In this document: positions 10,210-40,589 of the stretch, piece after piece
Position numbering within the stretch: position 1 is the first letter of the stretch
Layout of the letters: the number at the start of each line of letters is the position of its first letter
Program-made: the position numbers and the translations under genes
IMG/VR virus record: IMGVR_UViG_3300046786_000226
Location: 10,822 to 74,821 of that record
DNA length: 64,000 bases
Strand: one strand, 5' to 3'
Source of the DNA: a virus
Lineage: Duplodnaviria; Caudoviricetes
Notes under the pieces: generated by a model
Database searches by the model: none
What the model was told of the DNA's origin: nothing
Seen by the model: only the letters and a program-made list of their open reading frames with translations

Positions 10210-10995
10210 GCGAATTTTATTATTCTTTGCGACTGCGGTTGCCAAAACACTTAGGTCTTGTTCGCACCATTCTGCAAATTTCAACATAGCATTGGTGTCT
10301 TTTGGAAAGCACATACCACCAAAACCATAATCGCCATCTGGACCTGGAACTTGCATATGACTATTACCAAGTCGTTTATCTTGACTAACTGCTTGTTTAA
10401 TGTTATCCCAATTACATTGGTTATCTTCTGCTAGTTTGGCCATTTCGTTCATAAAAATAACTTTGGTAGCTAGAAAACTGTTTATAGTATATTTGGCAAA
10501 ACTAGCTTCGCCAATACTACAATGTGTCACGGAATTTAGATTTGGTTGGCTCATGCGAATGATTCGTTCTGCTTCATTTCTATATGCCATAGTTGAACCA
10601 CCAATGATAGCAAAACTTCCATTAACATAATCATTGACAGCATTTGCCGCAGTTAAGAATTCTGGAGCATGTACTAAGTTGGTATATGAGCATTGCAATC
10701 CTATATATACACTGGGTATAGCAGTTACTTTACTAATGATAACACCTTTAAAGCGTACCATTTCTAATTGCTTTAGAACATCAACTAATATACTAGTATC
10801 ACAGCTTCCATCATTACGTTGCGGACTTGGTACACAGACAAATACCGCGTCGTAGTTTATTATGTCATTATATGTTGCCATCCAACCTTTAGCTGGGTCT
10901 ATGGCCAATAGTTCTACATCAGAGTTATTGATAAAAGAACTATGTATAGCACCGCCGACAAAACCCATTCCTATGATTGCTACTTTTGTTTTCAT
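10201..10995 (-). CDS. UDP-glucose/GDP-mannose dehydrogenase family protein (short form)
   Basis: IIGMGFVGG Rossmann motif, FVCVPSP, IISKVT, PEFL, KYTINSFLATK, GFGGMCFPKD. Confidence 0.9.
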   Translation of the reverse strand: MKTKVAIIGMGFVGGAIHSSFINNSDVELLAIDPAKGWMATYNDIINYDAVFVCVPSPQRNDGSCDTSILVDVLKQLEMVRFKGVIISKVTAIPSVYIGLQCSYTNLVHAPEFLTAANAVNDYVNGSFAIIGGSTMAYRNEAERIIRMSQPNLNSVTHCSIGEASFAKYTINSFLATKVIFMNEMAKLAEDNQCNWDNIKQAVSQDKRLGNSHMQVPGPDGDYGFGGMCFPKDTNAMLKFAEWCEQDLSVLATAVAKNNKIRLT

Positions 10996-22088: not shown

Positions 22089-24734
22089 TTACCCGAACAA
22101 CATATCGAAGCTAGTTTTTTGATCACTAGCACTGATATCCCAGTCAAGAACTCCAATTAGGTTGTCCACTTTATTGTCAATAATAGTAGCTTCCATGGCC
22201 GCATTATCAAAAGATAATTCTTTAAACCATTCTGGTAGTCTAAGTTCATCTGTTGGATAAGCGATACTTGTAATACCCATTGGATTGGATTTTAGTTTAC
22301 AAACAATAACTTTCATACCATCAGTAATATCCATACTGCGTTGGTCACTGTGTGCTTTCTTAAATCTGTTCCAATTGATAGCCGCCATAGCATGTCCAAC
22401 TCCGCACTTGCCAGTCTTTTCAAAATTCTCAGTATGTTTGGTTAAGTTATTAACACGCTTAGGAGTACCTTTCTCCCATCCTGGTCGCTCTTTGAACTTT
22501 GTTCTAAACTCATTGATAGCATCAATAACGTCTTGCTTGTCCTGTCCATTAAGAACCATTAGTAGAATCTGCTCAAGAAACTTTTGCATGAACTCGGGAG
22601 TGTCTGATCTCTTAAGGTCAAGACCCATGGCCTTAATCTCGCCAAGCTCTCCGTTTATATCTTTGCGTTTACCTTCCTTATCATAGATAAGAACAGCATA
22701 ACGCTTTTTAGTAATGAACAAGCCTTTTGATGCAACAACCTCTCGACCGGCTTTAATAATCTCACCATAGTTAGTGGGACAATTAAATGCGTGATTCATA
22801 AAGCCAGGGAATGTGGCATTAACTTCATCGGCTACAGTATCGTATAACTCGATAATTTTATCACGAGTCCATTCGAGTTCATTTCTAGCAATTTGTTCTT
22901 TATAAATTGGATAAGCACTAAAATAACAAGAGTCAGTATCACCATAGATAATAGTCTTACCTAAGTGATCATATTCTCCTGTGAACATTTCATTTACTTG
23001 ACCTGCCATATGCTTGGCAACTTGCCTGCCACATAGTGTTGTACTTTGTCCTAATCGAATATCGAAGAACCTAGAACCTGCGTTAAGTAAAGCACCATAC
23101 AGTGAGTTCAAATTAATCTTTTTGACTAACTGTCGCTTGTCCCAATATTCAAACATATCAGTGCCATATGCTTCTTTGGCTTTCTTTTGTAAGTCTTTGC
23201 GCTCGCTGTACCAACGGGCTAGCAAGCCAGGAATAACGCCTTGCTTTTCAAAAGTAAACAATGTACCGTTAGCAGTCAACATCCAAGGATTGCCACTTAG
23301 ATAAATTAACTCATGTGCTTCTGCCGCTGACATTTCTGTGCTTCTGCCATCTTCCCAATCTATAATAATGGTATAGGCTTTATTCCTTGCCATAACTTGT
23401 TCGTATTCATGAATAGCAAATTTACCATCCCAATAATCAGCAAAGCCTTCGCCCTTAGCTAACCAATCTTTAAGTTCTTGCTTAGTTTGTTGCTGTCTAA
23501 TCTGTCCAACAATAGTCTCTGGACTCATGTTAAGCGCACGAATTAGAGAGGGATACAGACTGTTCAAGTCCATTGATCCAATCCAATCGTGAATGCCTTT
23601 TTTGGGATACGCAACATAAGCACCTGCTGCCTGTGTTTCAATCCCATCACCACGCTTACGATCCAAGACCATTAAGCCACGACTGTGAGCTTCGTTGATA
23701 ATCGCTTGGTCAGTCATAGCCACTGCGCCCATTGTTGTGCGTAGTGTAACTGTGTTTGCGTGTGCCAATACGTTAACTAAGTCAATGTATTGTAGTTTGG
23801 CATCCATCTTGTAAAGCAACATAGTATCTTGTCTGTTATAAGCAATAAACTTTTCAAAGTCATTGTTATACAGTTGATCCAATGTGCCTTCGTAATGAAC
23901 TTTAGTTTCACCAATCTCAATCTCACCGACATAGTCAAGACGATATGTATGAAGTTCATGATAGGTATACTTGCGATATAGATCAAGATAGTCTAAGTGT
24001 ACACGACCAACAAAGTCATATGTTTCGCTGATCTTGCCATACTTTTCGTATTCACGCTTTTTAGGTTTTTGACCCCACAAGCAGAATCGTTTAGTATGCT
24101 CTGCGCTCATTATTTTAATAATGCGATTAACAGTATAAGGTACGTCATAGCCTTCGCTGTTCCAGCCACTGATAATGTCAGCATCGTCGATGAGAGTTAG
24201 AAATGTTTCTAACATATCTACTTCGTCTGTACAAAGAATAGTGTCTTCAAAACGGGCAACGATTGCTTCTGCTTGATCCTGAGACATCTTTTCTGGTTTA
24301 ATAACCATTGTAATTAGTTTGTCTAACCAGCCGCAATGTACAGAGATAGCAGTAATAGGATTGAAAGGATCGCTGGGATCAGCAAAGCCTTTTTCTTTAT
24401 TGTACGCAACTTCGATATCGAAGAATGCCTTATTAAGTTTTGGAGCATCAGCATTGAGATAATTTGATTCTAAACAACGATTAAGAGGTTTGACATCACT
24501 TTCATAAAGTTGTTTGTGTCCGTAAATACGCTTTTCTTTTTCAAAAGCCTTATTACTAGACACAGCAACTTTGCTTAGTCTCTTACCATCAATGCCTGTG
24601 TATTGACCTTTATTGTCTTGGTAGTAAAACAAATAATGTGCTGGAAAGCTTTTAAACTTCCTAACGCCATCGACTCGTTCTACAACATTGATAAGGTCTT
24701 TATCTTTTACATAAACTGCGTCAACATAACTCAT
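22089..24734 (-). CDS. DNA polymerase, family B (T4 gp43-like)
   Basis: Exonuclease FDIEV, GWNSEGYD, YNRQD; polymerase MDLNSLYPS, KINLNSLYG, YGDTDS. Confidence 0.97.
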   Translation of the reverse strand: MSYVDAVYVKDKDLINVVERVDGVRKFKSFPAHYLFYYQDNKGQYTGIDGKRLSKVAVSSNKAFEKEKRIYGHKQLYESDVKPLNRCLESNYLNADAPKLNKAFFDIEVAYNKEKGFADPSDPFNPITAISVHCGWLDKLITMVIKPEKMSQDQAEAIVARFEDTILCTDEVDMLETFLTLIDDADIISGWNSEGYDVPYTVNRIIKIMSAEHTKRFCLWGQKPKKREYEKYGKISETYDFVGRVHLDYLDLYRKYTYHELHTYRLDYVGEIEIGETKVHYEGTLDQLYNNDFEKFIAYNRQDTMLLYKMDAKLQYIDLVNVLAHANTVTLRTTMGAVAMTDQAIINEAHSRGLMVLDRKRGDGIETQAAGAYVAYPKKGIHDWIGSMDLNSLYPSLIRALNMSPETIVGQIRQQQTKQELKDWLAKGEGFADYWDGKFAIHEYEQVMARNKAYTIIIDWEDGRSTEMSAAEAHELIYLSGNPWMLTANGTLFTFEKQGVIPGLLARWYSERKDLQKKAKEAYGTDMFEYWDKRQLVKKINLNSLYGALLNAGSRFFDIRLGQSTTLCGRQVAKHMAGQVNEMFTGEYDHLGKTIIYGDTDSCYFSAYPIYKEQIARNELEWTRDKIIELYDTVADEVNATFPGFMNHAFNCPTNYGEIIKAGREVVASKGLFITKKRYAVLIYDKEGKRKDINGELGEIKAMGLDLKRSDTPEFMQKFLEQILLMVLNGQDKQDVIDAINEFRTKFKERPGWEKGTPKRVNNLTKHTENFEKTGKCGVGHAMAAINWNRFKKAHSDQRSMDITDGMKVIVCKLKSNPMGITSIAYPTDELRLPEWFKELSFDNAAMEATIIDNKVDNLIGVLDWDISASDQKTSFDMLFG

Positions 24735-26763: not shown

Positions 26764-26769
26764 TATTTA
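26764..26769 (-). promoter_or_regulatory. T4-late-like TAAATA element 5 nt before ATG
   Basis: ATAAATA-AAACT-ATG. Confidence 0.5.
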
Positions 26770-27024
26770 TTGACTCTCACCAACAGCACGACCTTTGAAA
26801 GGATGCTGTTTAGGTGCTTTGCCTAACACTGGACTAGTCTTTTTTGGCATTTCAGTTGCAGGAACTTGTTTAGCTTTCTTTTGACCAGCATCTAAGTCCT
26901 CGCCAATCTCCTTACAGCTACCTTTTTCGTTTCGTTTCTTGCCTGGTACTTTTCTAAAACCTGGCCAGCACTTGTCGTAGATTTTGCTATTACCGTGTGC
27001 TTCGAGGAGTTCTTGTATTTTCAT
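26767..27024 (-). CDS. putative virion internal protein (MKIQELLE N-terminus)
   Basis: Capsid-targeting-like N-terminus; basic segments. Confidence 0.65.
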   Translation of the reverse strand: MKIQELLEAHGNSKIYDKCWPGFRKVPGKKRNEKGSCKEIGEDLDAGQKKAKQVPATEMPKKTSPVLGKAPKQHPFKGRAVGESQ

Positions 27025-27025
27025 A

Positions 27026-27448
27026 TTAACAATTCCATTTGCGTAATGCCAATGCCTTGCGTGTTGGCTCGCCGTTGTCCTTTTTCATAGGGCCTTTCAT
27101 GCCACCCATTCTAGCACAGAATGATTTACGACGTTTGGCAGCTTTACTGCCTTTTTTAAGTTTACTAGGTTTAGTTGTCACAGCAGTTTGTAATTTACTA
27201 CCAGGATGTTCCCTGCGATAGCTGGCAACACCTTTGGCATTTAAACCGCCATTTTTATTCTTACCTGACTTCTTTTGCCAAGCGGCAGATTCTTTTAGTA
27301 AGTCATCATCGTCTAGATCTTCAAAGTCTTCCCAAATTACATCAGCATCGACGCCATGCTGTTCGGCAAGTTGTTCTACCCATTCTTCAATGATATCAAA
27401 TTGAGAATCTAAGTCTTGGATTGATTCAGTAAGTTCGTATAATCTCAT
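27026..27448 (-). CDS. putative virion internal protein, acidic N-half and basic C-half
   Basis: MRLYELTE; LLKE-SAAWQKKSGKNKNGGLNAKG...RRKSFCARM. Confidence 0.7.
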   Translation of the reverse strand: MRLYELTESIQDLDSQFDIIEEWVEQLAEQHGVDADVIWEDFEDLDDDDLLKESAAWQKKSGKNKNGGLNAKGVASYRREHPGSKLQTAVTTKPSKLKKGSKAAKRRKSFCARMGGMKGPMKKDNGEPTRKALALRKWNC

Positions 27449-28356
27449 TTGTCTTCTGCGCTCTTAGATAACATTACTTTACCTTGTAATGTAGGATTGT
27501 TTTTAACCATAGCAAGTGCATAGTTATTGGCGCCACGTTTCCAATCAAAGGACTTTGCTACACCTTTTTGTTTGTATATTCTACCATCTATGCGAATATA
27601 CCATGGACCACGATCTTTGTCAATTTGTTGTTGACGTAAGTTACGTTCAAAGTTAGGATCATCTTCATGTCCTAATTCGTGTTGCATTTCTCGACGTTTA
27701 AAGTCACGCTTGCCTTGATCCATTTGATCTTGTTGATAGCTATCGTAGTTAGTAGCACTCATGGTGTCTGGATTACGACTGCCGTATCTACCAGCTTCCG
27801 ACACACCTTCATTTACTTTGACGCCATATTTTTGTAATAGTTGAGCAGTTTTTTGTGCCCACTGCTTGTTATTTTCAGCAGATGCACCAGACATGCCTCT
27901 AACAATGGTTATGTTTAAGTCTGCGTGTTCTTTAGCATATCGAGGATTCTGTTCAATCATTGCAAAATGTTGCTGTTGTACTTTGTTAATAAACGTTGTG
28001 TCATTTGCGCCGGCTTGAGCATTAGTGGCAGCACCAACCCCAGCGGCACCTAATGCCGCTGCCGCTCCAAATTTTAAAAATCCTCTGCGACTCATATCGG
28101 CTTCGTCTACGTCACTACCCATGCCATCTAGTGTTTGTTCAACTTGTCTAACCCAACCACTGACATCACTGCTACCAATTTCTTCTGTGTCGCCAACAAA
28201 GTCAGAAACATCATCAATTGCGGCCATGACTTTTTGTGGGCCATATTTTTGTAACAAGTCTGAACGTTGCATCATAATACGACGAGTGATAGCACCAGCT
28301 ACTGGACTATCGCTTTCAGTTAAACTGTGTTCTTGTGCAAATTCAAATAATCTCAT
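27445..28356 (-). CDS. putative modular virion internal protein with an embedded Tat-like signal
   Basis: MRLFEFAQE; internal VDE-ADMSRRGFLKFGAAAALGAAGVGAATNAQA. Confidence 0.7.
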   Translation of the reverse strand: MRLFEFAQEHSLTESDSPVAGAITRRIMMQRSDLLQKYGPQKVMAAIDDVSDFVGDTEEIGSSDVSGWVRQVEQTLDGMGSDVDEADMSRRGFLKFGAAAALGAAGVGAATNAQAGANDTTFINKVQQQHFAMIEQNPRYAKEHADLNITIVRGMSGASAENNKQWAQKTAQLLQKYGVKVNEGVSEAGRYGSRNPDTMSATNYDSYQQDQMDQGKRDFKRREMQHELGHEDDPNFERNLRQQQIDKDRGPWYIRIDGRIYKQKGVAKSFDWKRGANNYALAMVKNNPTLQGKVMLSKSAEDK

Positions 28357-29603
28357 AGTACAGACCTAATCTCTTCTCTAGATTTATAACCTTCAGCTAC
28401 ATAACGTAGTTGTTCGATAAACTCACGAACTGGACGTGGACGACCTTTTGGCATCATAGCACTTTCTGCACGTCTAGATGGACGACCTCTTGCGCTCTTA
28501 TATGCTTGTAATTGTACCGCTGATACTTTTTTGCCTGCTTTTTGTGACAATGTACCAGCACCAGAATTCCATGAACCTACTACAGCAAATTTATCGCCAC
28601 TTGGAATAACTGCTACTGCGTTTTCTGCGCTACCTACAATTTTGCGCTCTGGGTGTAATCTCTTAGACTTGTGATACCATAGTCTATAATCTGTAATCTT
28701 TTCGCCAGCATCAGTTGTTTGAATACTAGCACTAGGACGGCCTGCGGCTCTAGGAACAGCAGTGGCTTTAGCCGCTACTTTAGCTGCCTTGGCCGCTGCC
28801 TTGGCAGCAGGCTTTTTGTTGCCCCACTCATCGTAATCATCTTCGTCGCCGTCATCGCCTTGATATTCGCTGCCGTATTTGCCTTTGTGTACCATGCCAC
28901 CACTTGTTTTGGTTACTGTAGTACCCATGCCTGTTTTGCGTGACTTATCATTGAAACCATACCAGTCGTCATCATCTTCATCGTCATAACGCTCACTGAT
29001 TTTTTTCTTGCTTTCAGTAATAGATTCTGTAATATAATCATGCACGTCCTGATCAAAACGCATATGAATCCATTCATAAGGATCACCATCACGGCCTTTA
29101 GCTGTGCCATATGGCATTTCGCCATGTAGGAAATAGTAATCGTATAATGCGTGATATAACTCATCACTTAGTTCAGCACCTGCGGCAAAGTCTTTAACTT
29201 CCTTAGGGAAACGTTTTACAATGTGTGCCAATGTATCATTTTGTTCTGGAGCCGCTTCTGCCACTGGTACAGCTTCTTGAACGCCTGGCTGTCCAATACG
29301 TGTAGCCGCTGCTTGCGCCATTTCTGGACCACGATCTTTGTACAACATATTACGCATACTAGACATGATTTGATCAAATGCTCTTGGGTCAGATAACATT
29401 TGCATGAATTGTTCTTGACGACCATTTTGTAATGCTTTTTTATACAAGCCATATACAAATCTAGCTTCTGGGTGTTCTAATGTAACTGGTTCTCCGCCAA
29501 GTGTAATAATAGCTTCGGAGCCCGTAGTTGCCGCATTGGCAATAGATTTTAAATTGTTTGCTCCAGCAATTACTGGGCTTTCAAATAGTTCAAATAAATT
29601 CAT
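28353..29603 (-). CDS. putative modular virion internal protein with an AT-hook-like basic tail
   Basis: MNLFELFE; ITESITE; KPAAKAAAK, RGRP, KGRP. Confidence 0.7.
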   Translation of the reverse strand: MNLFELFESPVIAGANNLKSIANAATTGSEAIITLGGEPVTLEHPEARFVYGLYKKALQNGRQEQFMQMLSDPRAFDQIMSSMRNMLYKDRGPEMAQAAATRIGQPGVQEAVPVAEAAPEQNDTLAHIVKRFPKEVKDFAAGAELSDELYHALYDYYFLHGEMPYGTAKGRDGDPYEWIHMRFDQDVHDYITESITESKKKISERYDDEDDDDWYGFNDKSRKTGMGTTVTKTSGGMVHKGKYGSEYQGDDGDEDDYDEWGNKKPAAKAAAKAAKVAAKATAVPRAAGRPSASIQTTDAGEKITDYRLWYHKSKRLHPERKIVGSAENAVAVIPSGDKFAVVGSWNSGAGTLSQKAGKKVSAVQLQAYKSARGRPSRRAESAMMPKGRPRPVREFIEQLRYVAEGYKSREEIRSVL

Positions 29604-29606
29604 GAT

Positions 29607-30239
29607 TTAACCTTTATAATTGCTGAAGTCGAAAACTTTTCTTAGTCTGTCGTAGGCTTCAGTGCTTATTTCTTCTTTTACTTCTTCTTTATCGTTTGTA
29701 CCGTGGTCTGTTGTTTTTGTAAATTCTTTACCACCTACTGTAAACTTATCACCTTTTTTAACTTGACGCATAGCATCAACAAAAGCATTGCGTTCTGCAA
29801 TAGAAGCTGTACTTTCTTGTGGAACATCTTTCTTAGGATTGCCGGATTTGATAATATTAGCAATATTTTGAATTGTTTGGTCATCGCCATTTTTCAAAAT
29901 ACTTAAAAACGCATCAGCAAGAGTTAGTGTATCTTGTCTTGTTGGATTGCCAACTAGGCTACGTTGAATAGCAGTTCTTAAAACTCTAGGATCAACACCA
30001 ATCTCACCGCCAAGCTTGTTTATATTGTAGTGTGTGCCTTGACCTGGTGTTTCATTGCCGCCTGCCTGTTCGATGCCGCTTGGTGCTACGGCAGCTTCGC
30101 GTATTTTTTTCATTTCTTCTTGTAAACGAGCAATCATTGAATTGCGTTCAGAAAGTTGTTGTTCGTTTAACTCACTGGCATTTACGTTACTTAAACGAGT
30201 TGCTAGTTCATACATTTTGCGGGCTTTTGCTTTATCCAT
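29607..30239 (-). CDS. hypothetical protein in the internal-protein array
   Basis: Start moved to MDKAKARK; internal LNE/LSE/IRE/VKE sites. Confidence 0.65.
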   Translation of the reverse strand: MDKAKARKMYELATRLSNVNASELNEQQLSERNSMIARLQEEMKKIREAAVAPSGIEQAGGNETPGQGTHYNINKLGGEIGVDPRVLRTAIQRSLVGNPTRQDTLTLADAFLSILKNGDDQTIQNIANIIKSGNPKKDVPQESTASIAERNAFVDAMRQVKKGDKFTVGGKEFTKTTDHGTNDKEEVKEEISTEAYDRLRKVFDFSNYKG

Positions 30240-30456
30240 TATTAATCCTTTTTTCGATCCATTTAGCTTCCAATGCACTTGCCAATTCTTCGGCTATATT
30301 TGCATATGGTATTCTGCGTAATATTTCAGCACCTGATTCCTTACGCATACTTCTTGTTTTTCTCTTGCGGTGCATTCGCATAAATGGCATAGAAACAGTA
30401 GAAATACTACCTGAGCCCATACCATCTGTGTCTTCTGTTAGTTCTTGGATCTTCAT
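30232..30456 (-). CDS. putative virion internal protein (MKIQELTE)
   Basis: 74 aa; TAAATA 5 nt upstream. Confidence 0.6.
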   Translation of the reverse strand: MKIQELTEDTDGMGSGSISTVSMPFMRMHRKRKTRSMRKESGAEILRRIPYANIAEELASALEAKWIEKRINNG

Positions 30457-30461
30457 AAGTT

Positions 30462-30467
30462 TATTTA
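30462..30467 (-). promoter_or_regulatory. T4-late-like TAAATA element
   Basis: ATAAATA-AACTT-ATG. Confidence 0.55.
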
Positions 30468-30499
30468 TCGAATTTGTTTCGATTTATTTTAAATTTAAG

Positions 30500-31606
30500 T
30501 TACAGTAATTCCCAGCCGATAAACTGTGGATTCTTTAAGCTTTGTACACGTACTGTAGGATTTGATTCAAACATGCCATTGGCATAGCGTACATAGATAT
30601 CTAGTTCAGCATTATCTTCGCTGTCAGGACGACCAATAACAGCAATAAATCGTTGACTAGTGCCGTCAGGTTGGGCATACTTTAAACCTTTTAACTTAAG
30701 ATCCGCTACTTCATCTTGTGCTGGAACATAGTAAAATCCTTTGGCACTTAGGTAATAGTAAGGCTTGTCGCCAAAGCGTAGAATACTGCTTAACTTGCCA
30801 GCTTTGTTTAATGTTTGTTCGATGGTAACTTCAAATACTTTGGCAATTTTAGAATACATTGGCGTAGCATAAGCTTTTTTAGTGGCCCAGTTAGCTTGGA
30901 ACCAATCGCCGAATACACGCTGCCATTGTGAGTTTTTAGTGATAGCACCCATTATATCTTGGCCAGTCATTGAAATATTCTTGTCGCCTTTTAAATTGAT
31001 AATATACTTTTTAGTTTTACTATCGTAGGTAATGCCATAACGATCGATAGGAATCAAAGGTACATCTGGAGTACTTTGTGCGGCGTTAAGTACATCAGTG
31101 AATACCTTTTCTTTCATGTCTTGATATTCTGTGCCAGCATGCATGGCAAACACGTCAACACCGCGATCTGTTAGAATACCCAGAGCTGCTGGAGTTAAGT
31201 TAGCCAATGTAATACCGCCTTCTGCTTTGACACTAATACCGGCTGTGGCACCGCTTTCAAATTCAATGTCAGTAACACCTGCGGCAATGTTTTGTCCACC
31301 TGCCCATCCTAGTTTAGTGGGAGCAGGCCCTTGTTTGGCTACAACCTTTTCACGTACCATAGAACCTTTTCCAGCCCAAGCATCGAAAGTAGCTTGATCA
31401 AAGTTAGGTACTAACAAGCTTTTAATGTCCTTGTATGTTTGTTCGGGATTTATTAAGATTCCTGCAGGAATAGATTTTTCAGGATTCCTAGGGTCAAATT
31501 TACCGTGACCTACTAGGCCATAAAGCAAGCCCACTTCGCTATTGTAGCGAATACCACCGCTTTTGCCGCCTTCGGTTATGGCTTGTTTAAGTTCTAATAA
31601 TTTCAT
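30500..31606 (-). CDS. putative virion internal protein, possible PD-(D/E)xK nuclease fold
   Basis: MKLLELKQAITE; TDIEF...GISVK resembles a D...(I/S)xK nuclease core. Confidence 0.5.
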   Translation of the reverse strand: MKLLELKQAITEGGKSGGIRYNSEVGLLYGLVGHGKFDPRNPEKSIPAGILINPEQTYKDIKSLLVPNFDQATFDAWAGKGSMVREKVVAKQGPAPTKLGWAGGQNIAAGVTDIEFESGATAGISVKAEGGITLANLTPAALGILTDRGVDVFAMHAGTEYQDMKEKVFTDVLNAAQSTPDVPLIPIDRYGITYDSKTKKYIINLKGDKNISMTGQDIMGAITKNSQWQRVFGDWFQANWATKKAYATPMYSKIAKVFEVTIEQTLNKAGKLSSILRFGDKPYYYLSAKGFYYVPAQDEVADLKLKGLKYAQPDGTSQRFIAVIGRPDSEDNAELDIYVRYANGMFESNPTVRVQSLKNPQFIGWELL

Positions 31607-31613
31607 AATATTA

Positions 31614-31619
31614 TATTTA
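31614..31619 (-). promoter_or_regulatory. T4-late-like TAAATA element
   Basis: ATAAATA-TAATATT-ATG. Confidence 0.55.
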
Positions 31620-31625
31620 TTTCAA

Positions 31626-32246
31626 TTAAATCTTGTCTAACAAATCTCTGTTAGATCTTAAGTATGCTTTGGCATTGTTTAAATCATCGAAGGCTTTGAT
31701 TGTAACACCGTTGCCATCAATGACATGATAACGAACTTCAGTTGAATCGTCGACACGTTTACGAGTCAAACGTTTAATGTATGCTCTACCATCGTCGATG
31801 CTTTCTTTTACGCCTGAACCTGTGTCTACATTATATGATCCACTAGATCTTGAAATCTGATGTTTAGCTTCCCATACTTCGTTCAATAGCAAATCAACTA
31901 ATTTACTACCCAAATCTTCTTCTGCCCACTCTATCATACTTTCTCTAAATTCTGTATCGTAGCTTAAGACAGCATCTGCGAGATCAAACCAATTTGGAGA
32001 ACCGTTACTGTTTAGTTTATTATAGGCTTCTCTAACGTCTGAAAGATCTTGTCCCCAACTTATTTCTTCTGGATTTTCTTCATCGTAGTCATTATCCTGA
32101 GCAGTTCCTAATGATATTATTATTTCAGATAAAAACTTCTTTACTGCTGATACTGTGTTAGTAGGAGCAGGCCTGAAAAATTTCGCATAAGTTTGTTTCA
32201 TCAAATCGCTGTGATAATTTTCGCTTATTATTTCGTTGAATCTCAT
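31626..32246 (-). CDS. putative virion internal protein (MRFNEIISE)
   Basis: Targeting-like N-terminus; internal LNE, VKE. Confidence 0.65.
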   Translation of the reverse strand: MRFNEIISENYHSDLMKQTYAKFFRPAPTNTVSAVKKFLSEIIISLGTAQDNDYDEENPEEISWGQDLSDVREAYNKLNSNGSPNWFDLADAVLSYDTEFRESMIEWAEEDLGSKLVDLLLNEVWEAKHQISRSSGSYNVDTGSGVKESIDDGRAYIKRLTRKRVDDSTEVRYHVIDGNGVTIKAFDDLNNAKAYLRSNRDLLDKI

Positions 32247-32247
32247 T

Positions 32248-32697
32248 TTATTTTCCTATCCTGCTTAGTTCATATATTACTTTGTTGCCTGTATCAGCAC
32301 GAAAGGCTCTAAAGCCCCAAGCTCTAGCATAACGCTGAACTAAGCTGTCATATAGTCTGGCTCTACTCTGTGCGTTCTGTCCTTGTTCAACTTCTTTGCT
32401 AGCTGAAAAGATTACTTTATTAGGCTTGTATTTCTTAATAAACTTTTGAATAGCACTTAATACTGTAGCAAATACTCGTTGAGCATCACCTTCACCTGTT
32501 ACTTCTTGGCTGTTGTTTCTAAAGAATTCAACGTTCCATGCTTCTTCTTTATCTTGGTTATAACCTTTATTGAACATAATGCTTAGATAGTTACCATCAT
32601 CTAATTTAGCGTATGCGTCAATATCACCATAGTCTCCTTGTTCCCAACGAAGTTGGTAGGGTTGATCAAATGCTTCTTTTAATTCCAGTAATCGCAT
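32248..32697 (-). CDS. putative virion internal protein (MRLLELKE)
   Basis: Targeting-like N-terminus; GEGDAQRVFATV...SRARLY domain of unknown function. Confidence 0.65.
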   Translation of the reverse strand: MRLLELKEAFDQPYQLRWEQGDYGDIDAYAKLDDGNYLSIMFNKGYNQDKEEAWNVEFFRNNSQEVTGEGDAQRVFATVLSAIQKFIKKYKPNKVIFSASKEVEQGQNAQSRARLYDSLVQRYARAWGFRAFRADTGNKVIYELSRIGK

Positions 32698-32698
32698 A

Positions 32699-35053
32699 TT
32701 ATTCTTGACTCATTACAGGAACCATTACAGGCACCATTCTAAGGCCTTCTGTATGCTCGTGTCCATTATTTCTTATCCACGGAACGGCTGCTCTATAAGC
32801 ATCTTCTGCATTATTACCAACGCCACTGAGGCGATATAATTCTCTGCCAGTTCCGTCTACTAATTTCCATATACCTGTAAATCTGCCACCTTCGTGCCGA
32901 CCAAATGTTGGCAGTGGCTCGTTTTCTCCCACTGGCTCGACTTGATAGTTACCGTCAAAGTTATTTTCTCTTGCCCATAAGGCAGCAAACTCATTGGCAA
33001 ATGCTCGTGTATTGTTAGCGGCAAAGAATACATATAATGGTCTACCAAGCCCGTCTATTATTTTCCATCGGTGAGTTGGACTTGTTTGAGCACGGCCTTG
33101 TTGAGCGTCATTGCGTTGGCGCTGTAAATCTAATGTACTTCCTGGAATAGGTGCTGACAATACCGAGCGAACATCATAATCAGTTGGGTCTCCGGGTAAA
33201 CCTAAGTCGGCTAAATGTCCGGCAATTTTGTTGGCAGCATCATCTGGACTATTTGCTCTAAATACAATAGGGCGACCTGAATTTCCTATCACTGTTCTGC
33301 CGTCGGCTTTGCGATACAATTCATATTCTGACGATTGTCCTACACTGCCGGCTGGTTGTGGTTCACCTACTGTTGCTTTAACAGGACTTTCATCATATGG
33401 CTTAATTGGCTTTGCTGTCATGTTTGTAGCGTTTGCCCAATCTGGGTATTCTGATTTGCCTTTTTGTATAGCTTCTTCTTTGCTAGTAGCAACGACTTGA
33501 ACACTAGCACCGAATCCTGGACGACCCACACTCCACCAATATTTTTGTCCACTTGTTGGATCTTTTTGTACTTTACGTTCTAACTGCGCTTGACGAACAA
33601 AACTCTTTAACGCACTCTGTGGTAATTCGCCGGCAGCATATCTAGCAAAATAAGCTAATGTGTCAGTGCCTGTGCTTTCATTGCCTGTTAATAATTTATA
33701 AAGTTTCTTTGCGTATTCTTGTTTGTATTTTGTTTCGTCTACTGCGGCATCCATAGCAACAACAAAACGATATAGTGTATTTTCAATCTTGTCAAAGTTA
33801 TCGTTTAACCAATCGCCACCTGGACTACGGAATTCGATGTAGCCTGTTTTAGTATTAATACTTGTATACTTTGATGTACTACCACTGTGAATTATTTTAG
33901 ATGCACTGGTGTTTAAGTGTTCGCGCATTTTGTCTAACAATGCTTTTGTATCATCTGGTCGTTGTACGATATGATTTTTAACCATCTTAAGGGCACTCTT
34001 ACAGTAAGTATTGCCTTGACGACCAAACTCCTGTAATACGTATTCGTCGCCCATTAGAATAGCAAGCTTGACAAAGTCTAAATTAGCAATGTTGCCATCC
34101 CAATTAGGAACACTGACGTTAATGTGTAAACCTGTACTGTCATTTGTATAGCAACCAGTTTTGTCTGCCCACGCTTTAACTTTCTTTAAGTCTTCGATTA
34201 ATTCATTAACAGGCATAGGAGGGCTAACAAATTCCAATCCACCGTCTGCATCGTCATCTGGCTCTAAACTACCATCGGGTTCTACAACATAGTGTCCTGG
34301 CTCTCGACGTGCGCCATGATAGTTATTGCTGGAGTTGATTGGCTTACCAATAGCACGACTGAAACTATCTGCGGCATCATCTATACTAACTTCTCCAGTT
34401 TCTCTTTCTGGAGTAAAGTAATGTGGCCAAACAATGTGGTAATTACTTTCCACATCCTGCATAGTATTAATATCAGCACTTTCAAGCCATTCGCTTTCTA
34501 AATCAGCACTACCATAAAAATTATCACGGAAATCTTCTTCAGCTTCTTCATACCAAGGATTGATTTGATCTTCTGAGACTTTGGCGGCAGCGTTTCTATA
34601 ATCTTCTTTTGTAGGATCCGGATAGTTGCCGTTTTCATCTTCTTCTACACCTAATATACCAAATACATCACTAGGAGCGGCATTATAGCGTAGCCAATCA
34701 TATATGACTTCATCTTTATCTGTTTCCCAACGATCCGCTAAATGTTGGTCCAACCATTCATGATAATCTTCAGTCATTTTATCGCGAAGTTGTTCACAGT
34801 CTCTACGACTGTTAAAATCACCATCATAGAAGAAATCAAAGGCATCTTGAATACTGTTTACGCTTTCATCCGCATCGTAGTCTGTTTCTCGATAGTCATC
34901 ATCATAATCATCATCGCCTTGGCTTGCACCTGGAACAATCATTTCAAATTCCATACCAGCTTGTGCGTTAATGTTAGCAACAAGACTGCGTAGGCCAGCA
35001 GGGCTCATATTAATTTCATTGATGATTTGTTCGAATATTTCTTTGTATTTCAT
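32699..35053 (-). CDS. putative amidoligase (COOH-NH2 ligase type 2) with a targeting-like N-terminus
   Basis: GMEFE, EPDGSL, GLEFVSP, TGLHINV, KYTSIN, YIEFRSPG motifs; MKYKEIFE start. Confidence 0.8.
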   Translation of the reverse strand: MKYKEIFEQIINEINMSPAGLRSLVANINAQAGMEFEMIVPGASQGDDDYDDDYRETDYDADESVNSIQDAFDFFYDGDFNSRRDCEQLRDKMTEDYHEWLDQHLADRWETDKDEVIYDWLRYNAAPSDVFGILGVEEDENGNYPDPTKEDYRNAAAKVSEDQINPWYEEAEEDFRDNFYGSADLESEWLESADINTMQDVESNYHIVWPHYFTPERETGEVSIDDAADSFSRAIGKPINSSNNYHGARREPGHYVVEPDGSLEPDDDADGGLEFVSPPMPVNELIEDLKKVKAWADKTGCYTNDSTGLHINVSVPNWDGNIANLDFVKLAILMGDEYVLQEFGRQGNTYCKSALKMVKNHIVQRPDDTKALLDKMREHLNTSASKIIHSGSTSKYTSINTKTGYIEFRSPGGDWLNDNFDKIENTLYRFVVAMDAAVDETKYKQEYAKKLYKLLTGNESTGTDTLAYFARYAAGELPQSALKSFVRQAQLERKVQKDPTSGQKYWWSVGRPGFGASVQVVATSKEEAIQKGKSEYPDWANATNMTAKPIKPYDESPVKATVGEPQPAGSVGQSSEYELYRKADGRTVIGNSGRPIVFRANSPDDAANKIAGHLADLGLPGDPTDYDVRSVLSAPIPGSTLDLQRQRNDAQQGRAQTSPTHRWKIIDGLGRPLYVFFAANNTRAFANEFAALWARENNFDGNYQVEPVGENEPLPTFGRHEGGRFTGIWKLVDGTGRELYRLSGVGNNAEDAYRAAVPWIRNNGHEHTEGLRMVPVMVPVMSQE

Positions 35054-35055
35054 AG

Positions 35056-35313
35056 TTAGCCTACAACTTTCGCAGTAATTTTATATTTATTGTAATAATG
35101 ATTGATATCAAAAATAGCAGATTTGTAATCATCGACAAGCCAATGATATACATAAAACTTTAACAAGCTTTTAGAATCCTCGCTGAACTTTGTAGCCGTT
35201 ACTCTTGCTAATGCCAATGACGGATAGCGACTTTTTAATTTAGAAATAATATACTCGTCGTATGTGTCTACTTCGACATCAAGTGTAGTATATGTTTGAT
35301 CAACACGCTTCAT
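35056..35313 (-). CDS. hypothetical protein
   Basis: 85 aa, coupled. Confidence 0.6.
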   Translation of the reverse strand: MKRVDQTYTTLDVEVDTYDEYIISKLKSRYPSLALARVTATKFSEDSKSLLKFYVYHWLVDDYKSAIFDINHYYNKYKITAKVVG

Positions 35314-36551
35314 TTTTTATGTTTAAAATAATTAATACGACGCTCTTGCTTCTCTACCCAATCCTTGCTGGGTTTGCCATCGCCTTTAAAATATACCAAA
35401 GGACGACCTTCTCGTTTACTTACTATGGCCCAACGCTTGTGTATCTTACGAAGGTATTCCAATAAGTTGGCAGCTTCTTCTTCTAGATTGTATTCTTCGC
35501 TGTCTGTAATTTGTTTTAAGTTGTGCTTTTTCAACCATTGCTGATATTCATATGGTGTTCTGAATTCTTTTCTTTTATTAGCAACTGCTTTAGGATCATA
35601 ATAAAGACGTTGTTTAGTAATCTCTAATGGGTCATGTGCTTTTTCATCACCAGCAAAGAAGTCACGCATAGTAGATAAACTTGTAGCTTCTTCTAAGTCA
35701 GCAACCGCAAAGCCAATATAACTATCGCCATTCTCGTCGCCTGATTGTACAACAAAGGCACCGCCTTCTTCTGATTCTAATTCGCCAATTTCCCAACCCA
35801 TACGTGCTAGTACTTGCTCTACTTGTTGCTGTGTGCCCAAGTCTCCATTGTACCACATACGAGCATATTTGTGTAATGTTTCTTCTTCTCCGCCATCGCC
35901 TGCGTCTGGAGCAAATTCATTTAAGCTTTCGGATACTGCTAGTCGTTTGTCAAATATTTGTTTAATCTTTTTTAACTGTCTACTCTGCGGATATAAGTCT
36001 TGTAGAATACTTAATTTAGTTTGATCATCTGCACCGCTGTATAGTTCTCTAACTTGACTGCCGCTGTAAACAGGATTACCGGCAATACTAAAGTCGTGCT
36101 TTTTAGTCACAAAAATATAGGCATGCTTGCTAAAAGGTTCTGCACCTTGTATACCTTGCCATGGTTGATAGTAACTCACATCCGTTGTTTTCATTGGATC
36201 ACGTTCACTGCGAACAATTACCAATACGTCGCGTTCTGGATTGAATTTTTGTAATACTTCTAAAGGATTTAACGGAGTGCTGGTTACTTTGCGACCATTG
36301 TCATTGACATAGCTCATTGTACCTACTTGTATAAATGGATCGACTACGCCTGCTTGCTGTGCTAAAAATTGTTTTTCTTTAAATTCAAATGGACGCTCTG
36401 TGGTTACGTTACTGGCAGCAACAAAGAAATGTGCGCCAGGAAAAGCTGTCTTAGCTTCTCTATAACTGCTGGCATGTCCTTCATGAAAGGGTTGAAAGCC
36501 GCCTCCATAGACAACTATAATGTTTGGTTGTTTAACTTCTAATAATCTCAT
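35310..36551 (-). CDS. HxGH-class nucleotidyltransferase with a targeting-like N-terminus and C-terminal modules
   Basis: YGGGFQPFHEGH, YSGSQVRE; MRLLEVKQ; LNE/LEE separators. Confidence 0.75.
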   Translation of the reverse strand: MRLLEVKQPNIIVVYGGGFQPFHEGHASSYREAKTAFPGAHFFVAASNVTTERPFEFKEKQFLAQQAGVVDPFIQVGTMSYVNDNGRKVTSTPLNPLEVLQKFNPERDVLVIVRSERDPMKTTDVSYYQPWQGIQGAEPFSKHAYIFVTKKHDFSIAGNPVYSGSQVRELYSGADDQTKLSILQDLYPQSRQLKKIKQIFDKRLAVSESLNEFAPDAGDGGEEETLHKYARMWYNGDLGTQQQVEQVLARMGWEIGELESEEGGAFVVQSGDENGDSYIGFAVADLEEATSLSTMRDFFAGDEKAHDPLEITKQRLYYDPKAVANKRKEFRTPYEYQQWLKKHNLKQITDSEEYNLEEEAANLLEYLRKIHKRWAIVSKREGRPLVYFKGDGKPSKDWVEKQERRINYFKHKK

Positions 36552-37828
36552 TAGCGTCTTGCTTTCAAAAAGTTCTCACGACTGAATTCTAATCTGTCTA
36601 CGATTTTAACTGCTTCAGTGCCGCCTGTGCCTAAATGGTCAACAATAACAACACCCTCTTCTGGCTTAACATCAAAGCTGCCATCTGGTCTAGCAATAAA
36701 TGTATTGATTTGACGTATTCTAGCATAGTGTAATTGTAACACATCTTTAACACGTTGTATACCCAGGAATAAGAAGTAAACATTGGTAATGCTTTCTTCG
36801 TGCTGTCTAATAAATTTCAATGCTTCTTCCTGTGCTTGTCGTTTACGGTCTTGACCAGTTTGTGTTTTTAGTTTAGCAATATCAGCAGTTAAACGTTCTT
36901 CTAACCGTCCAACAAACTTGCTAACATACACTGCAGGTTGATCCATTAAACCGCTACGCACCATTTTGTTTACGTCAATTTTAATTAAGTCTCTAATGCC
37001 ATGGCCAGCAATACTGGCTTCTAACCATTGGAATGTTTCTTGGCCAATACCCTGCAAGAAACTTGTTAGTTCAGTGATAGCATGTTCTAATTTATATGTT
37101 TCTTCTCTAGTCAATGTTACGCTACCGCTGACATCTTTTAATGCGGCATCTCTATAATAGACAAACGGACTAGATCCTAGTTCGCTGGTATCAGCACCAA
37201 AGCGGGCCTGCATGTCACTGATGCTGGTGCCTTCATAGGTTGTATGGAACACAACACCTACTTTAACTTTGCTCATTTTCTGTGCCAATGGTGTATCAGC
37301 AGGAACAGCATAAGTTAATAAGTTAGGCTTAAATGTCCAATAGTTTTCGCCGTCGATTTGTTGAAAGCCACTGTCGCCATCTCCTGCTGTCCATAACAAA
37401 TCACCTTGAAGAATTTTATCTCCAAAGTTTAAATCTTTTAAGTAATTAAATGCTACCTTTAGTTTAGTTCTAAGTCCACTGTAGTCTACTTTCGAACCGT
37501 CTTTGGCAGTTTTATCTGGCTTAATTCTATCAATGTCAGCGGCAGTATAGATTCTATTATCTTTAGTGCCAGCAAAAATACCTTTGTCGCCCATGATAAA
37601 TTGTCCTGTTTCTGGATCAGTGCCTACAAATATAGCTGGGCTACCATCCCATTTCTTAGTGGCAAAATAACGGCCGTCTGTGTTACCATGTAATAGTCCA
37701 GCGGCTCCTTGTAAGTAGCTTATAGCTTCAACAGCACCTTGATAACCCCTGTTCCAGATTTCATCATCCAAGTGTTCTAAGTGTGTGTTCTTGCCTTCTA
37801 CGGTTTCGACGAGTTGTTGTATCTTCAT
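36551..37828 (-). CDS. ligase-like nucleotidyltransferase (KxDG) with a targeting-like N-terminus
   Basis: MKIQQLVETVE; KNTHLEHL, KKWDGSPAIF, ILQGDL, EEGVV, AVKIVDRLEFS resemble ligase motifs I, III, IV, V. Confidence 0.6.
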   Translation of the reverse strand: MKIQQLVETVEGKNTHLEHLDDEIWNRGYQGAVEAISYLQGAAGLLHGNTDGRYFATKKWDGSPAIFVGTDPETGQFIMGDKGIFAGTKDNRIYTAADIDRIKPDKTAKDGSKVDYSGLRTKLKVAFNYLKDLNFGDKILQGDLLWTAGDGDSGFQQIDGENYWTFKPNLLTYAVPADTPLAQKMSKVKVGVVFHTTYEGTSISDMQARFGADTSELGSSPFVYYRDAALKDVSGSVTLTREETYKLEHAITELTSFLQGIGQETFQWLEASIAGHGIRDLIKIDVNKMVRSGLMDQPAVYVSKFVGRLEERLTADIAKLKTQTGQDRKRQAQEEALKFIRQHEESITNVYFLFLGIQRVKDVLQLHYARIRQINTFIARPDGSFDVKPEEGVVIVDHLGTGGTEAVKIVDRLEFSRENFLKARR

Positions 37829-37836: not shown

Positions 37837-37842
37837 TATTTA
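37837..37842 (-). promoter_or_regulatory. T4-late-like TAAATA element heading the internal-protein array
   Basis: ATAAATA-CTAACTAT-ATG. Confidence 0.6.
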
Positions 37843-37881
37843 TTAGAAATAAACATTTAATTGAAACAAATTGTAGTCATG

Positions 37882-37917: not shown

Positions 37918-38943
37918 TTAGTTTAAGTTAACCCATGCATTGCCAGTATAGCCTTTGAATACACCATTGTCTAAAACAATCATGCCGGCTTCTGGTGGAT
38001 TAGGTAAATTGCCGTTGCATTCAGCAACTTTCATGAAACCATTTACTCTTGCGCCACCGCCATCTACACGTAGCTTTTCTGTACCATTGCTAGATACACA
38101 AACTACGCCATCGGCTGGATGGAAAAGACCAGTATCAACACTACCGTCATTGCCAAATACTACGCTTGGATTGCTGGCTGTACCATCGCCTAATGTAATT
38201 TTATCAACATCAGGATTGCCGCCTAAGTCAGCATAGCTACCGCTAGAAGCTACCGCGGCCAAGTTTGGTTTGCCTGTTAAACTACCATATTGGCCGTCAA
38301 ACAATGTTGGCTTGCTAGTCAAACTATCATAATCGCCATCAAACAATGTTGGCTTGTGTGTCAAGTCGTCATAGTCACCACTGAACAATGTCGGCTTACT
38401 AGTTAAGTCGTCATAGTCACCACTGAACAATGTTGGCTTGTGCGATAAGCTGTCGTAGTCGCCATCAAACAATGTTGGTTTATTAGACAAATTATTGTAA
38501 TCGCCATTGAATAAAGTTGGCTTATTAGTCAATGAATTGTAGTTACCGTCGAACAATGTTGGCTTATTCAATAAGTCAGCATATTCACCGCTGGTAGCAA
38601 CAACTGATAAATCTGCTGTATTTGCTTTTAAGCCCAATTGTGTAGTAACTGTTGCGCTGAAGTTAGCATCGTTGCCCAATGCTTGTGCTAGTTCGTTTAA
38701 TGTGTCTAACGCACTACCAGCACCAGCTTTTAATGCAGTGATAGCATTATTAACATAAGTTTCGCTGGCCAAGCCTGCGACGCTAGGAATAACATAATCT
38801 AGATCAGTCCATGGACTAGTTCCATTACCAATTTTAATATTGCCAGTAGTCAAGTCTAAACCAATTTCGCCTTGGCTAAGTGTTGGATCTGCTGTAGTCC
38901 AATTTACTGTAGTATCTCTTCTAAGTTGAATTTTGTTTGCCAT
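37918..38943 (-). CDS. tail fibre/structural protein with an Mtd/hyaluronidase-like N-terminal domain
   Basis: KIQLRRDT..NW...PTLSQGEIG.D....KIGNG...W..L.Y; LDTLNELAQAL; 14-aa repeats. Confidence 0.8.
   Translation of the reverse strand: MANKIQLRRDTTVNWTTADPTLSQGEIGLDLTTGNIKIGNGTSPWTDLDYVIPSVAGLASETYVNNAITALKAGAGSALDTLNELAQALGNDANFSATVTTQLGLKANTADLSVVATSGEYADLLNKPTLFDGNYNSLTNKPTLFNGDYNNLSNKPTLFDGDYDSLSHKPTLFSGDYDDLTSKPTLFSGDYDDLTHKPTLFDGDYDSLTSKPTLFDGQYGSLTGKPNLAAVASSGSYADLGGNPDVDKITLGDGTASNPSVVFGNDGSVDTGLFHPADGVVCVSSNGTEKLRVDGGGARVNGFMKVAECNGNLPNPPEAGMIVLDNGVFKGYTGNAWVNLN
38270..38590 (-). repeat. 42-bp coding tandem repeat, 7 units (KPTLFxGxYxxLxx); boundaries approximate
   Basis: Seven KPTLF units counted in the translation; aacaatgttggctt recurs at 42-bp spacing. 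Confidence 0.9.
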
Positions 38944-38944
38944 T

Positions 38945-39166
38945 TTAAGCTGCGCCTCCGTCTAATTCGATATCATCAATTCCGTATACAGTCGTCGATG
39001 CTCCGCCGTCGACTTCGATAACCCCTGCAGAGTATCCTCTTGGACCCCTAGGACCTGGGTTACCTTTTTGGCCTGCAGGCCCTTGTGGACCATGTAATCC
39101 AGGTAAACCTCTAGGACCTTGTGGCCCAGTTAAACCACGTGGCCCGTTAATATATTGCACTGTCAT
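38945..39166 (-). CDS. short collagen-like (Gly-X-Y) structural protein
   Basis: [16 protein letters not shown]... then IEVDGG/IELDGG. Confidence 0.8.
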
Positions 39167-39866: not shown

Positions 39867-40589
39867 TTACAATTTAACTATCTTATCTCTACTAGCTTCT
39901 GCTAGTACTTGTTCAGTTCTTTCAGTGACATTGCCAGTAATTTGTAACATAGGTCTATCGTGCCAGCCCATATTACAAGTACTGTGAGGAATATTTTTCC
40001 ATTCCCAAGTAATACAATCTCCCGCTGACCATTGTGTCCAAGCGGCATTGCCTAATTGAAATACCTGTCCTACTTCCCAGTCTGCTAACATAATAGCAAA
40101 GCGTCGAATGGTTTCCGGCTTCTTATCAAACTCTGTAACAATGAAACTATTTTCACGTTCTTCACGACCAGCAAAGTTATCAATGTGTAAATGCAACATT
40201 TGTCCTGTACGCTGATTGTGAAATTTAAGTGCGGAATTCTCTACACCTAAATATTCATTAATTTTTTGAAACAATTCAATGTCTTCTCCTTTACTTCTAT
40301 CAAAGATAGGAGACTTAGGATCAGCGCCTGCATTAATTAAATCTTGTTCTTCGGCACTGGCACTATACAATTCACCTTGAACTTTATAGTTATTTCTAGT
40401 GCTCCATGAACTTTCTACACCACGTGGTAAACATTGACGAATAGCATCCGTAAAGTCTGCGTCAAAACGACAGACATAGGTAAAACTATCCAGTCCTGGC
40501 TCTGGTGGCTTTTTTGTATCAAAGTGCCACTTACTTTGTTGTTTAGTGTAGTTCCAACGACTACCTTGCCAGTCTTGATATTCTGCCAT
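39867..40589 (-). CDS. 2OG-Fe(II) dioxygenase-like (DSBH) protein
   Basis: HLHID...PHSTCN...DRPMLQITG gives an HxD...H...R pattern. Confidence 0.65.
   Translation of the reverse strand: MAEYQDWQGSRWNYTKQQSKWHFDTKKPPEPGLDSFTYVCRFDADFTDAIRQCLPRGVESSWSTRNNYKVQGELYSASAEEQDLINAGADPKSPIFDRSKGEDIELFQKINEYLGVENSALKFHNQRTGQMLHLHIDNFAGREERENSFIVTEFDKKPETIRRFAIMLADWEVGQVFQLGNAAWTQWSAGDCITWEWKNIPHSTCNMGWHDRPMLQITGNVTERTEQVLAEASRDKIVKL

Follow-up and report, generated by a model that had tools for sequence, protein, structure and literature searches.

We analysed a 64,000-nt stretch of viral DNA (the window; positions 10,822 to 74,821 of the IMG/VR record IMGVR_UViG_3300046786_000226), and focused on an array of 13 tightly packed minus-strand genes (26767-37828), several of which overlap by 1-4 nt and most of which open with the same short peptide leader. 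The source fragment is a 74,821-bp IMG/VR viral contig; since CheckV rates its completeness at ~21%, the genome should be near 350 kb. The family-B DNA polymerase (PolB; 22089-24734, minus strand) shows 43-49% identity with the PolB of T4-superfamily jumbo phages. Sinorhizobium phage Phosso ranked first and Agrobacterium phage Atu_ph07 second among the cultured matches, and further matches were jumbo phages of 320-370 kb (Vibrio, Salmonella, Klebsiella, Escherichia). Immediately upstream of the array is a tail-fibre-like gene whose product has an Mtd_N domain. None of 50,697 phage records was matched in a megablast search with the whole 11-kb array.

The leader, M-[KRN]-hydrophobic-x-[EQ]-hydrophobic, takes up 8-12 residues and begins 11 of the 13 array genes (Table 1). 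A hydrophobic-x-Glu site is found at residue 8, 9 or 12 in 10/11 leaders; the residue two before this Glu is L, I, V or F, and the next residue is A, S, G or T in seven. A preliminary description of this DNA had listed 13 open reading frames (ORFs) and quoted 11 such N-termini, and all were found on the minus strand where it had placed them.

Its statement that the motif is missing outside the array also held. We scanned the 74.8-kb contig in six frames, taking ORF starts of at least 40 amino acids (aa). With a loose pattern (M[KRN][ILFVYM]x[EQK][ILVF]) we recovered the 11 array genes and 4 matches elsewhere, and all 4 lacked a following Glu. A strict pattern (^M[KRN][ILFVYMT].[EQ][ILVFM].{1,6}E) matched 10/13 array genes and 0/93 other ORFs of the contig (Fisher p = 9e-12), so the motif is not equally frequent elsewhere and is confined to this locus. 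Because the strict pattern came from the array itself, we also ran a pattern derived only from the leaders of phage T4 (hydrophobic-x-E-hydrophobic-hydrophobic-x-E within the first 12 residues). It matched 2 ORFs, both in the array, and a version shorter by one residue matched 7, again all in the array.

Past residue 12 the array proteins have no mutual similarity (all-against-all BLASTP), as the preliminary description had claimed. They belong to different Pfam families (DUF6267, CTP_transf_like, Amidoligase_2, DUF6934, DUF6321), and 6 of the 11 tagged proteins have no family at all. The DNA upstream of the array genes is not conserved and the codons of the leader vary; therefore, selection acts on the peptide.

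Table 1. Genes of the array and late-promoter-like motifs upstream of them (coordinates of the window)
Feature	Coordinates	Strand	Remarks
425-aa DUF6267 protein, first gene of array	36551-37828	-	leader MKIQQLVE; Pfam DUF6267 E = 5e-79, domain from residue 14
413-aa HxGH cytidylyltransferase-like nucleotidyltransferase	35310-36551	-	leader MRLLEVKQ; Pfam CTP_transf_like, residues 14-146; variable C-terminal modules
85-aa ORF without leader (exception 1)	35056-35313	-	start MKRVDQ; absent in related arrays L088, L089, L091
784-aa amidoligase-domain protein	32699-35053	-	leader MKYKEIFE; Pfam Amidoligase_2, residues 219-414; three small C-terminal repeats
149-aa DUF6934 protein	32248-32697	-	leader MRLLELKE; Pfam DUF6934 and PHROG matches
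206-aa acidic two-module protein	31626-32246	-	leader MRFNEIISE
368-aa protein, large uncharacterised family	30500-31606	-	leader MKLLELKQAITE, then GG
74-aa basic protein	30232-30456	-	leader MKIQELTE; conserved in L001, L088, L089, L091
223-aa ORF without leader (exception 2)	29607-30278	-	true start probably ATG at 30239; orthologues begin MDKAKARKMYELA
416-aa protein	28353-29603	-	leader MNLFELFE, then S; Ala/Lys-rich stretch, three GRP (AT-hook-like) motifs
303-aa protein	27445-28356	-	leader MRLFEFAQE; inserted module opening with twin-arginine-type signal
140-aa protein	27026-27448	-	leader MRLYELTE, then S; acidic N-terminal half, basic DUF6321 C-terminal half (Pfam E = 1e-22)
85-aa basic protein, last gene of array	26767-27024	-	leader MKIQELLE, then A; isoelectric point (pI) 9.9 after leader
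AATAAATA, T4-late-promoter-like	37837-37844	-	upstream of first array gene
AATAAATA	35084-35091	-	upstream of 784-aa gene
AATAAATA	31614-31621	-	upstream of 368-aa gene
GATAAATA	30462-30469	-	upstream of 74-aa gene

The TAAATA elements that the preliminary description had placed at 37837, 31614 and 30462 are all matches to the late-promoter-like motif NATAAATA. We found a fourth match at 35084-35091, and each of the four is directly upstream of an array gene. The placement of the motif near starts is non-random, and 10/14 minus-strand matches are located no more than 60 nt ahead of a start. The leader is absent from other ORFs of the contig with the motif upstream.

To follow the leader beyond this contig, we compared homologues of two array proteins, and found that it is kept across families and phages. 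The 368-aa family comprises 184 homologue clusters, all environmental. Among the best 120 of these 184 clusters (45-87% identity), the proteins start with M-[RK]-[FIL]-x-E-[FIV] and carry [LIV]-x-E directly before the conserved core GG[KA]S..RYNSEVG; the leader has 9-17 residues, and the stretch between start motif and boundary 0 to ~10. One homologue begins MGGKS, which is the predicted mature N-terminus. DUF6267 has more than 4,400 homologues. The best 120 of these (41-93% identity) carry 8-55 extra residues before the conserved GKNTHLEH. Apart from seven entries that are truncated or have a short start, this extension begins in the same way, and it ends in hydrophobic-x-E, then A or S. In the DUF6267 protein of Stenotrophomonas phage DLP_6, for example, the leader is MMKFTQFLAE, followed by S. 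The orthologue of cyanophage P-HM2 has no leader and starts MSKNTHLEH, again the predicted mature N-terminus. In both families the linker between leader start and boundary differs in length and in sequence from one homologue to the next. Exactly such a pattern is expected of a removable propeptide, with a start address and a boundary that looks like a cut site both kept, and a free linker between them. The AlphaFold2 models of the two array proteins, both confident, are disordered at residues 1-14 (DUF6267; pLDDT 81) and 1-15 (368-aa protein; pLDDT 90), which do not form part of the fold.

We then compared the array with related array-bearing stretches (L001, L088, L089, L091 and L094), where cargo genes have been exchanged between close relatives with the leader kept. 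L001, whose orthologues are 87% identical, has the same array; in place of the DUF6934 gene it has one for a 634-aa amidoligase paralogue with the same leader, MRLLELKE. It also has an extra 228-aa tagged gene and module insertions or deletions within three proteins, and its orthologue of the last, 85-aa gene keeps the leader and the C-terminus with ~245 extra residues between them. The other four, with DUF6267 genes 69-77% identical to that of the window, carry arrays of 8-12 tagged genes with other cargo. Leader-tagged proteins of L094 include a NUDIX and ADP-ribosyltransferase (ADPrib_exo_Tox) protein and an HD_4 hydrolase (L094:15547-16857 and L094:10196-10741). Across 12 related stretches (703 ORFs) we counted 95 leader-bearing proteins in ~25 families, some of which are joined by common C-terminal modules. 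The 416-aa protein has orthologues in four related arrays, and its leader is close to MELITELFDE of T4 Alt. The DUF6321 domain is also found at the end of several larger PHROG families.

This tag resembles the capsid-targeting sequence (CTS) of T4. All internal head proteins of T4 reach the core via a CTS of 10-20 residues, which the protease gp21 removes after Glu (PMC5694885); its presence on internal proteins (IPs) IPI, IPII, IPIII and on Alt, and its removal by gp21, are attributed to Mullaney & Black 1996 as cited in PMC5694885. From the T4 genome (NC_000866) we read MKTYQEFIAE, then A, for IPII and IPIII; MAKINELLRE, then S, for gp24; and MELITELFDE, then D, for Alt, while gp23 is preceded by ..FLTE, then A. 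In both phages a short N-terminal acidic and hydrophobic leader stands on unrelated proteins and ends in hydrophobic-x-Glu before a small residue; MKTYQEFIAE and MELITELFDE of T4 may be set beside MKYKEIFE, MNLFELFE and MRFNEIISE of the window. The likeness extends to the ADP-ribosyltransferase class, represented by Alt in T4 and by a tagged protein in a related array, and to the Peptidase_S77 prohead protease, which is encoded by the tag-bearing phages G003 (the contig of stretch L012), PA5oct and Atu_ph07. G003, a distant relative, has a second such array together with a T4-type head module that includes this protease. In Atu_ph07 the strict pattern gave 4 scattered matches among 846 ORFs and no array. 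The T4 record annotates Alt as 'present in T4 capsid and enters the host with the infecting DNA'.

The window differs from T4 in arrangement and cargo. Its 11 tagged genes form one operon-like block of 11 kb, whereas the three IP genes and alt of T4 are scattered, and its cargo consists mostly of large enzymes of up to 784 aa, whereas that of T4 consists of small basic proteins. The internal proteins of T-even phages are a diverse, defence-related set with only the CTS in common (PMC3012670), and in their polymorphic loci (Repoila et al.) cargo is gained, lost and exchanged with the leader kept, as it is here. Unlike those loci, the present ones hold ~25 cargo families over a handful of contigs, shuffle modules within proteins, and are carried by uncultured jumbo phages rather than coliphages.

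Taken together, these data make it probable that this jumbo phage of the T4 superfamily carries, in the array, a hyperplastic 'head cargo' locus with T4-CTS-like leaders. In the mechanism that we propose by analogy with the T4 CTS, the leader would attach its protein to the scaffold core while the prohead assembles, and a T4-type prohead protease (Peptidase S77) would remove it, cutting after Glu. The mature proteins would remain inside the DNA-filled head, and would enter the host together with the DNA. The cargo would include the RNA-ligase-like enzyme, the HxGH nucleotidyltransferase, the amidoligase, the widespread 368-aa protein and several basic proteins, and could serve host takeover or anti-defence. 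Because the tag resembles the head-loading signal of T4, it probably marks a large, fast-changing, pre-made set of enzymes delivered into the host.

The preliminary description had already proposed a capsid-targeted, protease-removed leader on head cargo. The likeness to T4, the boundaries within families, the exchange of cargo, the Peptidase_S77 genes of relatives and mass spectrometry (MS) of PA5oct virions favour this part of the proposal; the polyprotein part, considered below, is weak.

An indirect link to virions comes from the Pseudomonas jumbo phage PA5oct (Lood et al. 2020), where the strict pattern matches only 3/455 ORFs, all adjacent (EST35_0380-0382). EST35_0380 (MRLNEINLIE) and EST35_0381 (MKILEFNLTE) are annotated 'structural protein, ESI-MS/MS'. 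EST35_0382 has 64 aa and consists of the leader MKLSEICILE and a module to which the last 44 residues of our 413-aa protein are 59% identical. Thus, the PA5oct genes are like the array in leader type, in adjacency, in two MS-verified virion proteins and in one 44-residue module in common with the nucleotidyltransferase; they differ in being three genes only, with no enzymes recognised. The main text of the PA5oct paper (PMC7318152) does not mention gp380, gp381, gp382, a prohead protease or a propeptide.

In cyanophages, the cytidylyltransferase T4-GC190 of S-SM1 is an MS-detected virion protein (PMC3037559), and in P-HM2 the T4-GC190 gene adjoins the DUF6267 orthologue. Sullivan 2010 does not flag this orthologue, T4-GC71, as present in virions, which gives no positive support and is consistent with the leaderless P-HM2 copy.

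Several observations weigh against the array being a head-cargo locus. The leader of the window usually has 8 residues, with its pair of Glu three apart rather than four as in T4. The nucleotidyltransferase leader, MRLLEVKQPN, lacks a good site for cleavage, having no hydrophobic-x-E before a small residue at position 8. Prohead protease, capsid and scaffold genes are all missing from the 74.8-kb fragment (~21% complete). The preliminary description had pointed to the protease gene as a thing to find, and the contig gave no Peptidase_S77 match; the gene was found in G003, PA5oct and Atu_ph07, so the link to a protease comes from relatives. The total count of NATAAATA is not above the expectation from base composition, and only its placement is. 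In PA5oct, 93 of 461 genes encode virion proteins anyway (PMC7318152), so two of three against a background of 20% is only suggestive (~p = 0.1 alone). BLASTP of the window nucleotidyltransferase against the neighbouring cytidylyltransferases T4-GC190 and T4-GC534 of P-HM2 found no similarity, although all have HxGH. Moreover, the P-HM2 copy of T4-GC190 has no such leader though its S-SM1 orthologue is in the virion; therefore, the leader is not the sole route into the head.

Phage SPN3US, which is phiKZ-like, offers another comparison, as its ejection (E) proteins are processed by the prohead protease gp245 (PMC5694885, PMC7411985). Here too a jumbo head holds many proteins, a T4-related protease cuts propeptides after Glu, and paralogues have conserved N-termini. 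The SPN3US propeptides, however, are mostly >100 residues long and cut at A-x-E, and the genes do not form one tagged array. We rejected the phiKZ/SPN3US type of ejection protein for this locus, as the window leaders have 8-12 aa with L/I/V/F-x-E, not >100 aa with A/S/G-x-E (PMC5694885). Nor is the window phage phiKZ-like: the nearest relatives of its PolB are those of Atu_ph07, Phosso and further jumbo phages of 320-490 kb.

We considered other explanations of the shared N-terminus. The leader may target the prohead while the proteins are parts of the core or scaffold that are degraded and expelled at maturation rather than injected. The T4 core proteins gp22, gp67 and gp68 are indeed cut by gp21 and lost (PMC5694885), and several array proteins are acidic or of low complexity. 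However, the cargo includes folded enzymes with invariant catalytic motifs (KxDG, HxGH, amidoligase, and the ADP-ribosyltransferase in a relative), which a disposable scaffold does not need; tagged PA5oct proteins are found in mature virions; and the array genes turn over fast between relatives, unlike essential scaffolds. We regard this explanation as unlikely.

It is similarly improbable that the N-terminus serves expression or stability, for example through an A-rich and unstructured start of translation, folding during translation or protection from N-end degradation, or that it forms a short helix for a cytoplasmic complex unrelated to the virion. A-rich codons (AAA, AGA, GAA) do follow the ATG, and MK or MR starts are common in AT-rich genomes, but the 93 other ORFs of the contig lack the leader, including those preceded by late promoters, and the conserved residue classes are written in varying codons. 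The second element, hydrophobic-x-E before a small residue at variable distance, is kept in hundreds of homologues, and neither this nor the confinement of the motif to the locus is accounted for by an expression signal.

Rather less probable still is that a modifying or partner enzyme of the radical-SAM type recognises the leader, which would then not be a capsid address. This idea draws on the wealth of PF04055 genes in relatives (14 in G001, the contig of L001, and 17 in G003). Their blocks, however, lie >40 kb from the arrays in G001 and G003, and the only one on the window's contig is ~35 kb away; PA5oct has tagged virion proteins and no radical-SAM match; and the tag, which ends in a T4-type protease cleavage motif, corresponds to known propeptides of T4. 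That one gene was duplicated serially, with the N-terminus as residual homology between paralogues, is very improbable: the genes are tandem and co-oriented, and the 784-aa protein and the 634-aa protein of L001 are paralogues, but the 13 proteins lack similarity beyond the leader, fall into five Pfam families with differing predicted folds, and belong to families that occur elsewhere both with and without it.

Returning to head cargo, we examined whether it is also cut internally. The preliminary description took the array proteins for polyproteins that are cut into modules at [ILV]xE sites. These sites are not enriched (14.2 per 1000 residues in array proteins vs 14.9 in other ORFs of the contig), and [ILV]xE[SAG] is weakly above shuffled sequences (z = 2.1). 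One orthologue pair does have a module border exactly at such a site: the C-terminal module of the 206-aa protein follows VKE, then S, and its 67-aa L001 orthologue is MRLNEFINE, then S, fused straight to the same module. Comparison of orthologues also gave one conserved module border of V-x-E, then AGRYGS. With no enrichment of internal sites, the support for polyproteins comes down to one or two indels between orthologues.

The 303-aa protein carries a Tat (twin-arginine)-type signal at residues 88-115 (28012-28095, minus strand), consisting of MSRRGFLKF, an Ala/Gly-rich stretch and AQA, two residues past a VDE site. The ~85-residue insert that bears it is absent in the 203-aa L001 orthologue. 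Either an internal start could yield a product exported by Tat, or cleavage by a protease could expose the signal.

We also noted modules of ~40 residues with W/Y-x-I/V-x-D-G-x-G-R. Three stand at the end of the 784-aa protein, and the 206-aa, 303-aa and 413-aa proteins also carry such modules at their C-termini; the regions include 32699-33400 (the last 230 residues of the 784-aa protein), 31626-31800 and 35310-35450. The copy in the 413-aa protein has 59% identity to stand-alone small proteins of PA5oct and 53% to proteins of Stenotrophomonas jumbo phages. A jackhmmer search with the recurrent small C-terminal module found only the orthologue, while regular expressions and BLAST do show related repeats. 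It may be a common cargo or DNA-binding module.

To predict the functions of the cargo, we examined sequences and models of single proteins. DUF6267 has an invariant K59-x-D61-G62. The top VIA matches of its model are RNA ligases, namely Naegleria nick-sealing RNA ligase (5cot, Z 7.7), T. brucei REL1 (1xdn, Z 7.6) and T4 Rnl2 (1s68, Z 7.1), with 178-197 residues aligned and all below the VIA caution line of Z 8. These fold matches are consistent with an RNA-ligase-like covalent nucleotidyltransferase. DUF6267 is mentioned in no paper found by our literature search. In the 413-aa protein the HxGH nucleotidyltransferase domain follows directly after the leader; its orthologues (207-663 aa) have leader and domain in common and differ in their C-terminal modules. 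The Atu_ph07 homologue of the 784-aa protein adjoins portal and prohead-core genes.

For the 368-aa protein, Foldseek against the PDB found no significant fold, BFVD gave matches only to uncharacterised phage proteins, and tblastn against phages gave no match. VIA scores were 4.7 or less in Z, within noise, with MspI, HinP1I and a Cas4-like nuclease in the top rows. The family has an invariant D113 ... S125-x-K127, so that a PD-(D/E)xK-like nuclease is possible, this nuclease-like motif being only a lead. PDB sequence searches with the DUF6267 protein, the nucleotidyltransferase and the 368-aa protein found nothing below E = 0.29. Several small array members are basic after the leader (pI 9-10), and several of the basic proteins are probably DNA-binding. 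Together with the enzymes of relatives, the cargo leans to NAD, nucleotide and RNA-end chemistry.

A wider proposal is more doubtful, and we offer it tentatively. The cargo code, M-[KR]-hydrophobic-x-E-hydrophobic ... hydrophobic-x-E and then a small residue, might be readable from sequence broadly in aquatic T4-superfamily jumbo phages. It might load a large and quickly exchanged repertoire of enzymes (RNA-ligase-like, NMNAT/cytidylyltransferase-like, amidoligase, NUDIX-ADP-ribosyltransferase, HD hydrolase) that amounts to an injected toolkit for RNA repair and for NAD and nucleotide metabolism. Some cargo might be multi-module chains freed by the prohead protease, including one whose Tat signal would be brought to the N-terminus only by the cut.

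The T4 CTS is already known, as are polymorphic IP loci, and our literature search found no paper on enzyme arrays of CTS type in jumbo phages related to T4. Should the tag prove to be a capsid address, the proteins that uncultured T4-related jumbo phages inject could be read off directly from their sequences. Since injected proteins are active before any phage gene is expressed, they would be prime candidates for anti-defence and host takeover. Compared with Alt and the three small internal proteins in T4, the array suggests enzymatic cargo far greater in both number and size, and it places DUF6267, DUF6321, DUF6934 and the 368-aa family in a functional context for the first time. Being short, natural and conserved over thousands of proteins, the tag could also be used for loading foreign proteins into large capsids. 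PA5oct, which is cultured and has existing virion MS data, is an immediate test bed.

Within the array itself, the 74-aa tagged gene always runs into the start of the untagged gene that comes next; in relatives the overlap is 8 nt, and the untagged gene begins MDKAKARKMYELA. This overlap (30232-30278 in the window) suggests that the tagged and the untagged product are translationally coupled.

Further observations concern the surroundings of the array and its relatives. The tail-fibre-like Mtd_N gene (37918-39166, minus strand) has ~8 KPTLF-x-G-D/Q-Y repeats and is preceded by a 73-aa collagen-like (G-P-x) ORF. The pair is inserted between the nucleosidase gene and the array, which is not the case in relatives L088, L089 and L091. 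The PF04055 genes form blocks at 50-93 kb of G001 (14 genes) and 47-89 kb of G003 (17), with 4 such genes in G002 and one on the window's contig, outside the window, a striking expansion for a phage. At 40589-41548 (minus strand), the window encodes a secreted solute-binding protein of the TctC/Bug family with a signal peptide, and its orthologues are found near the arrays of relatives L089 and L091.

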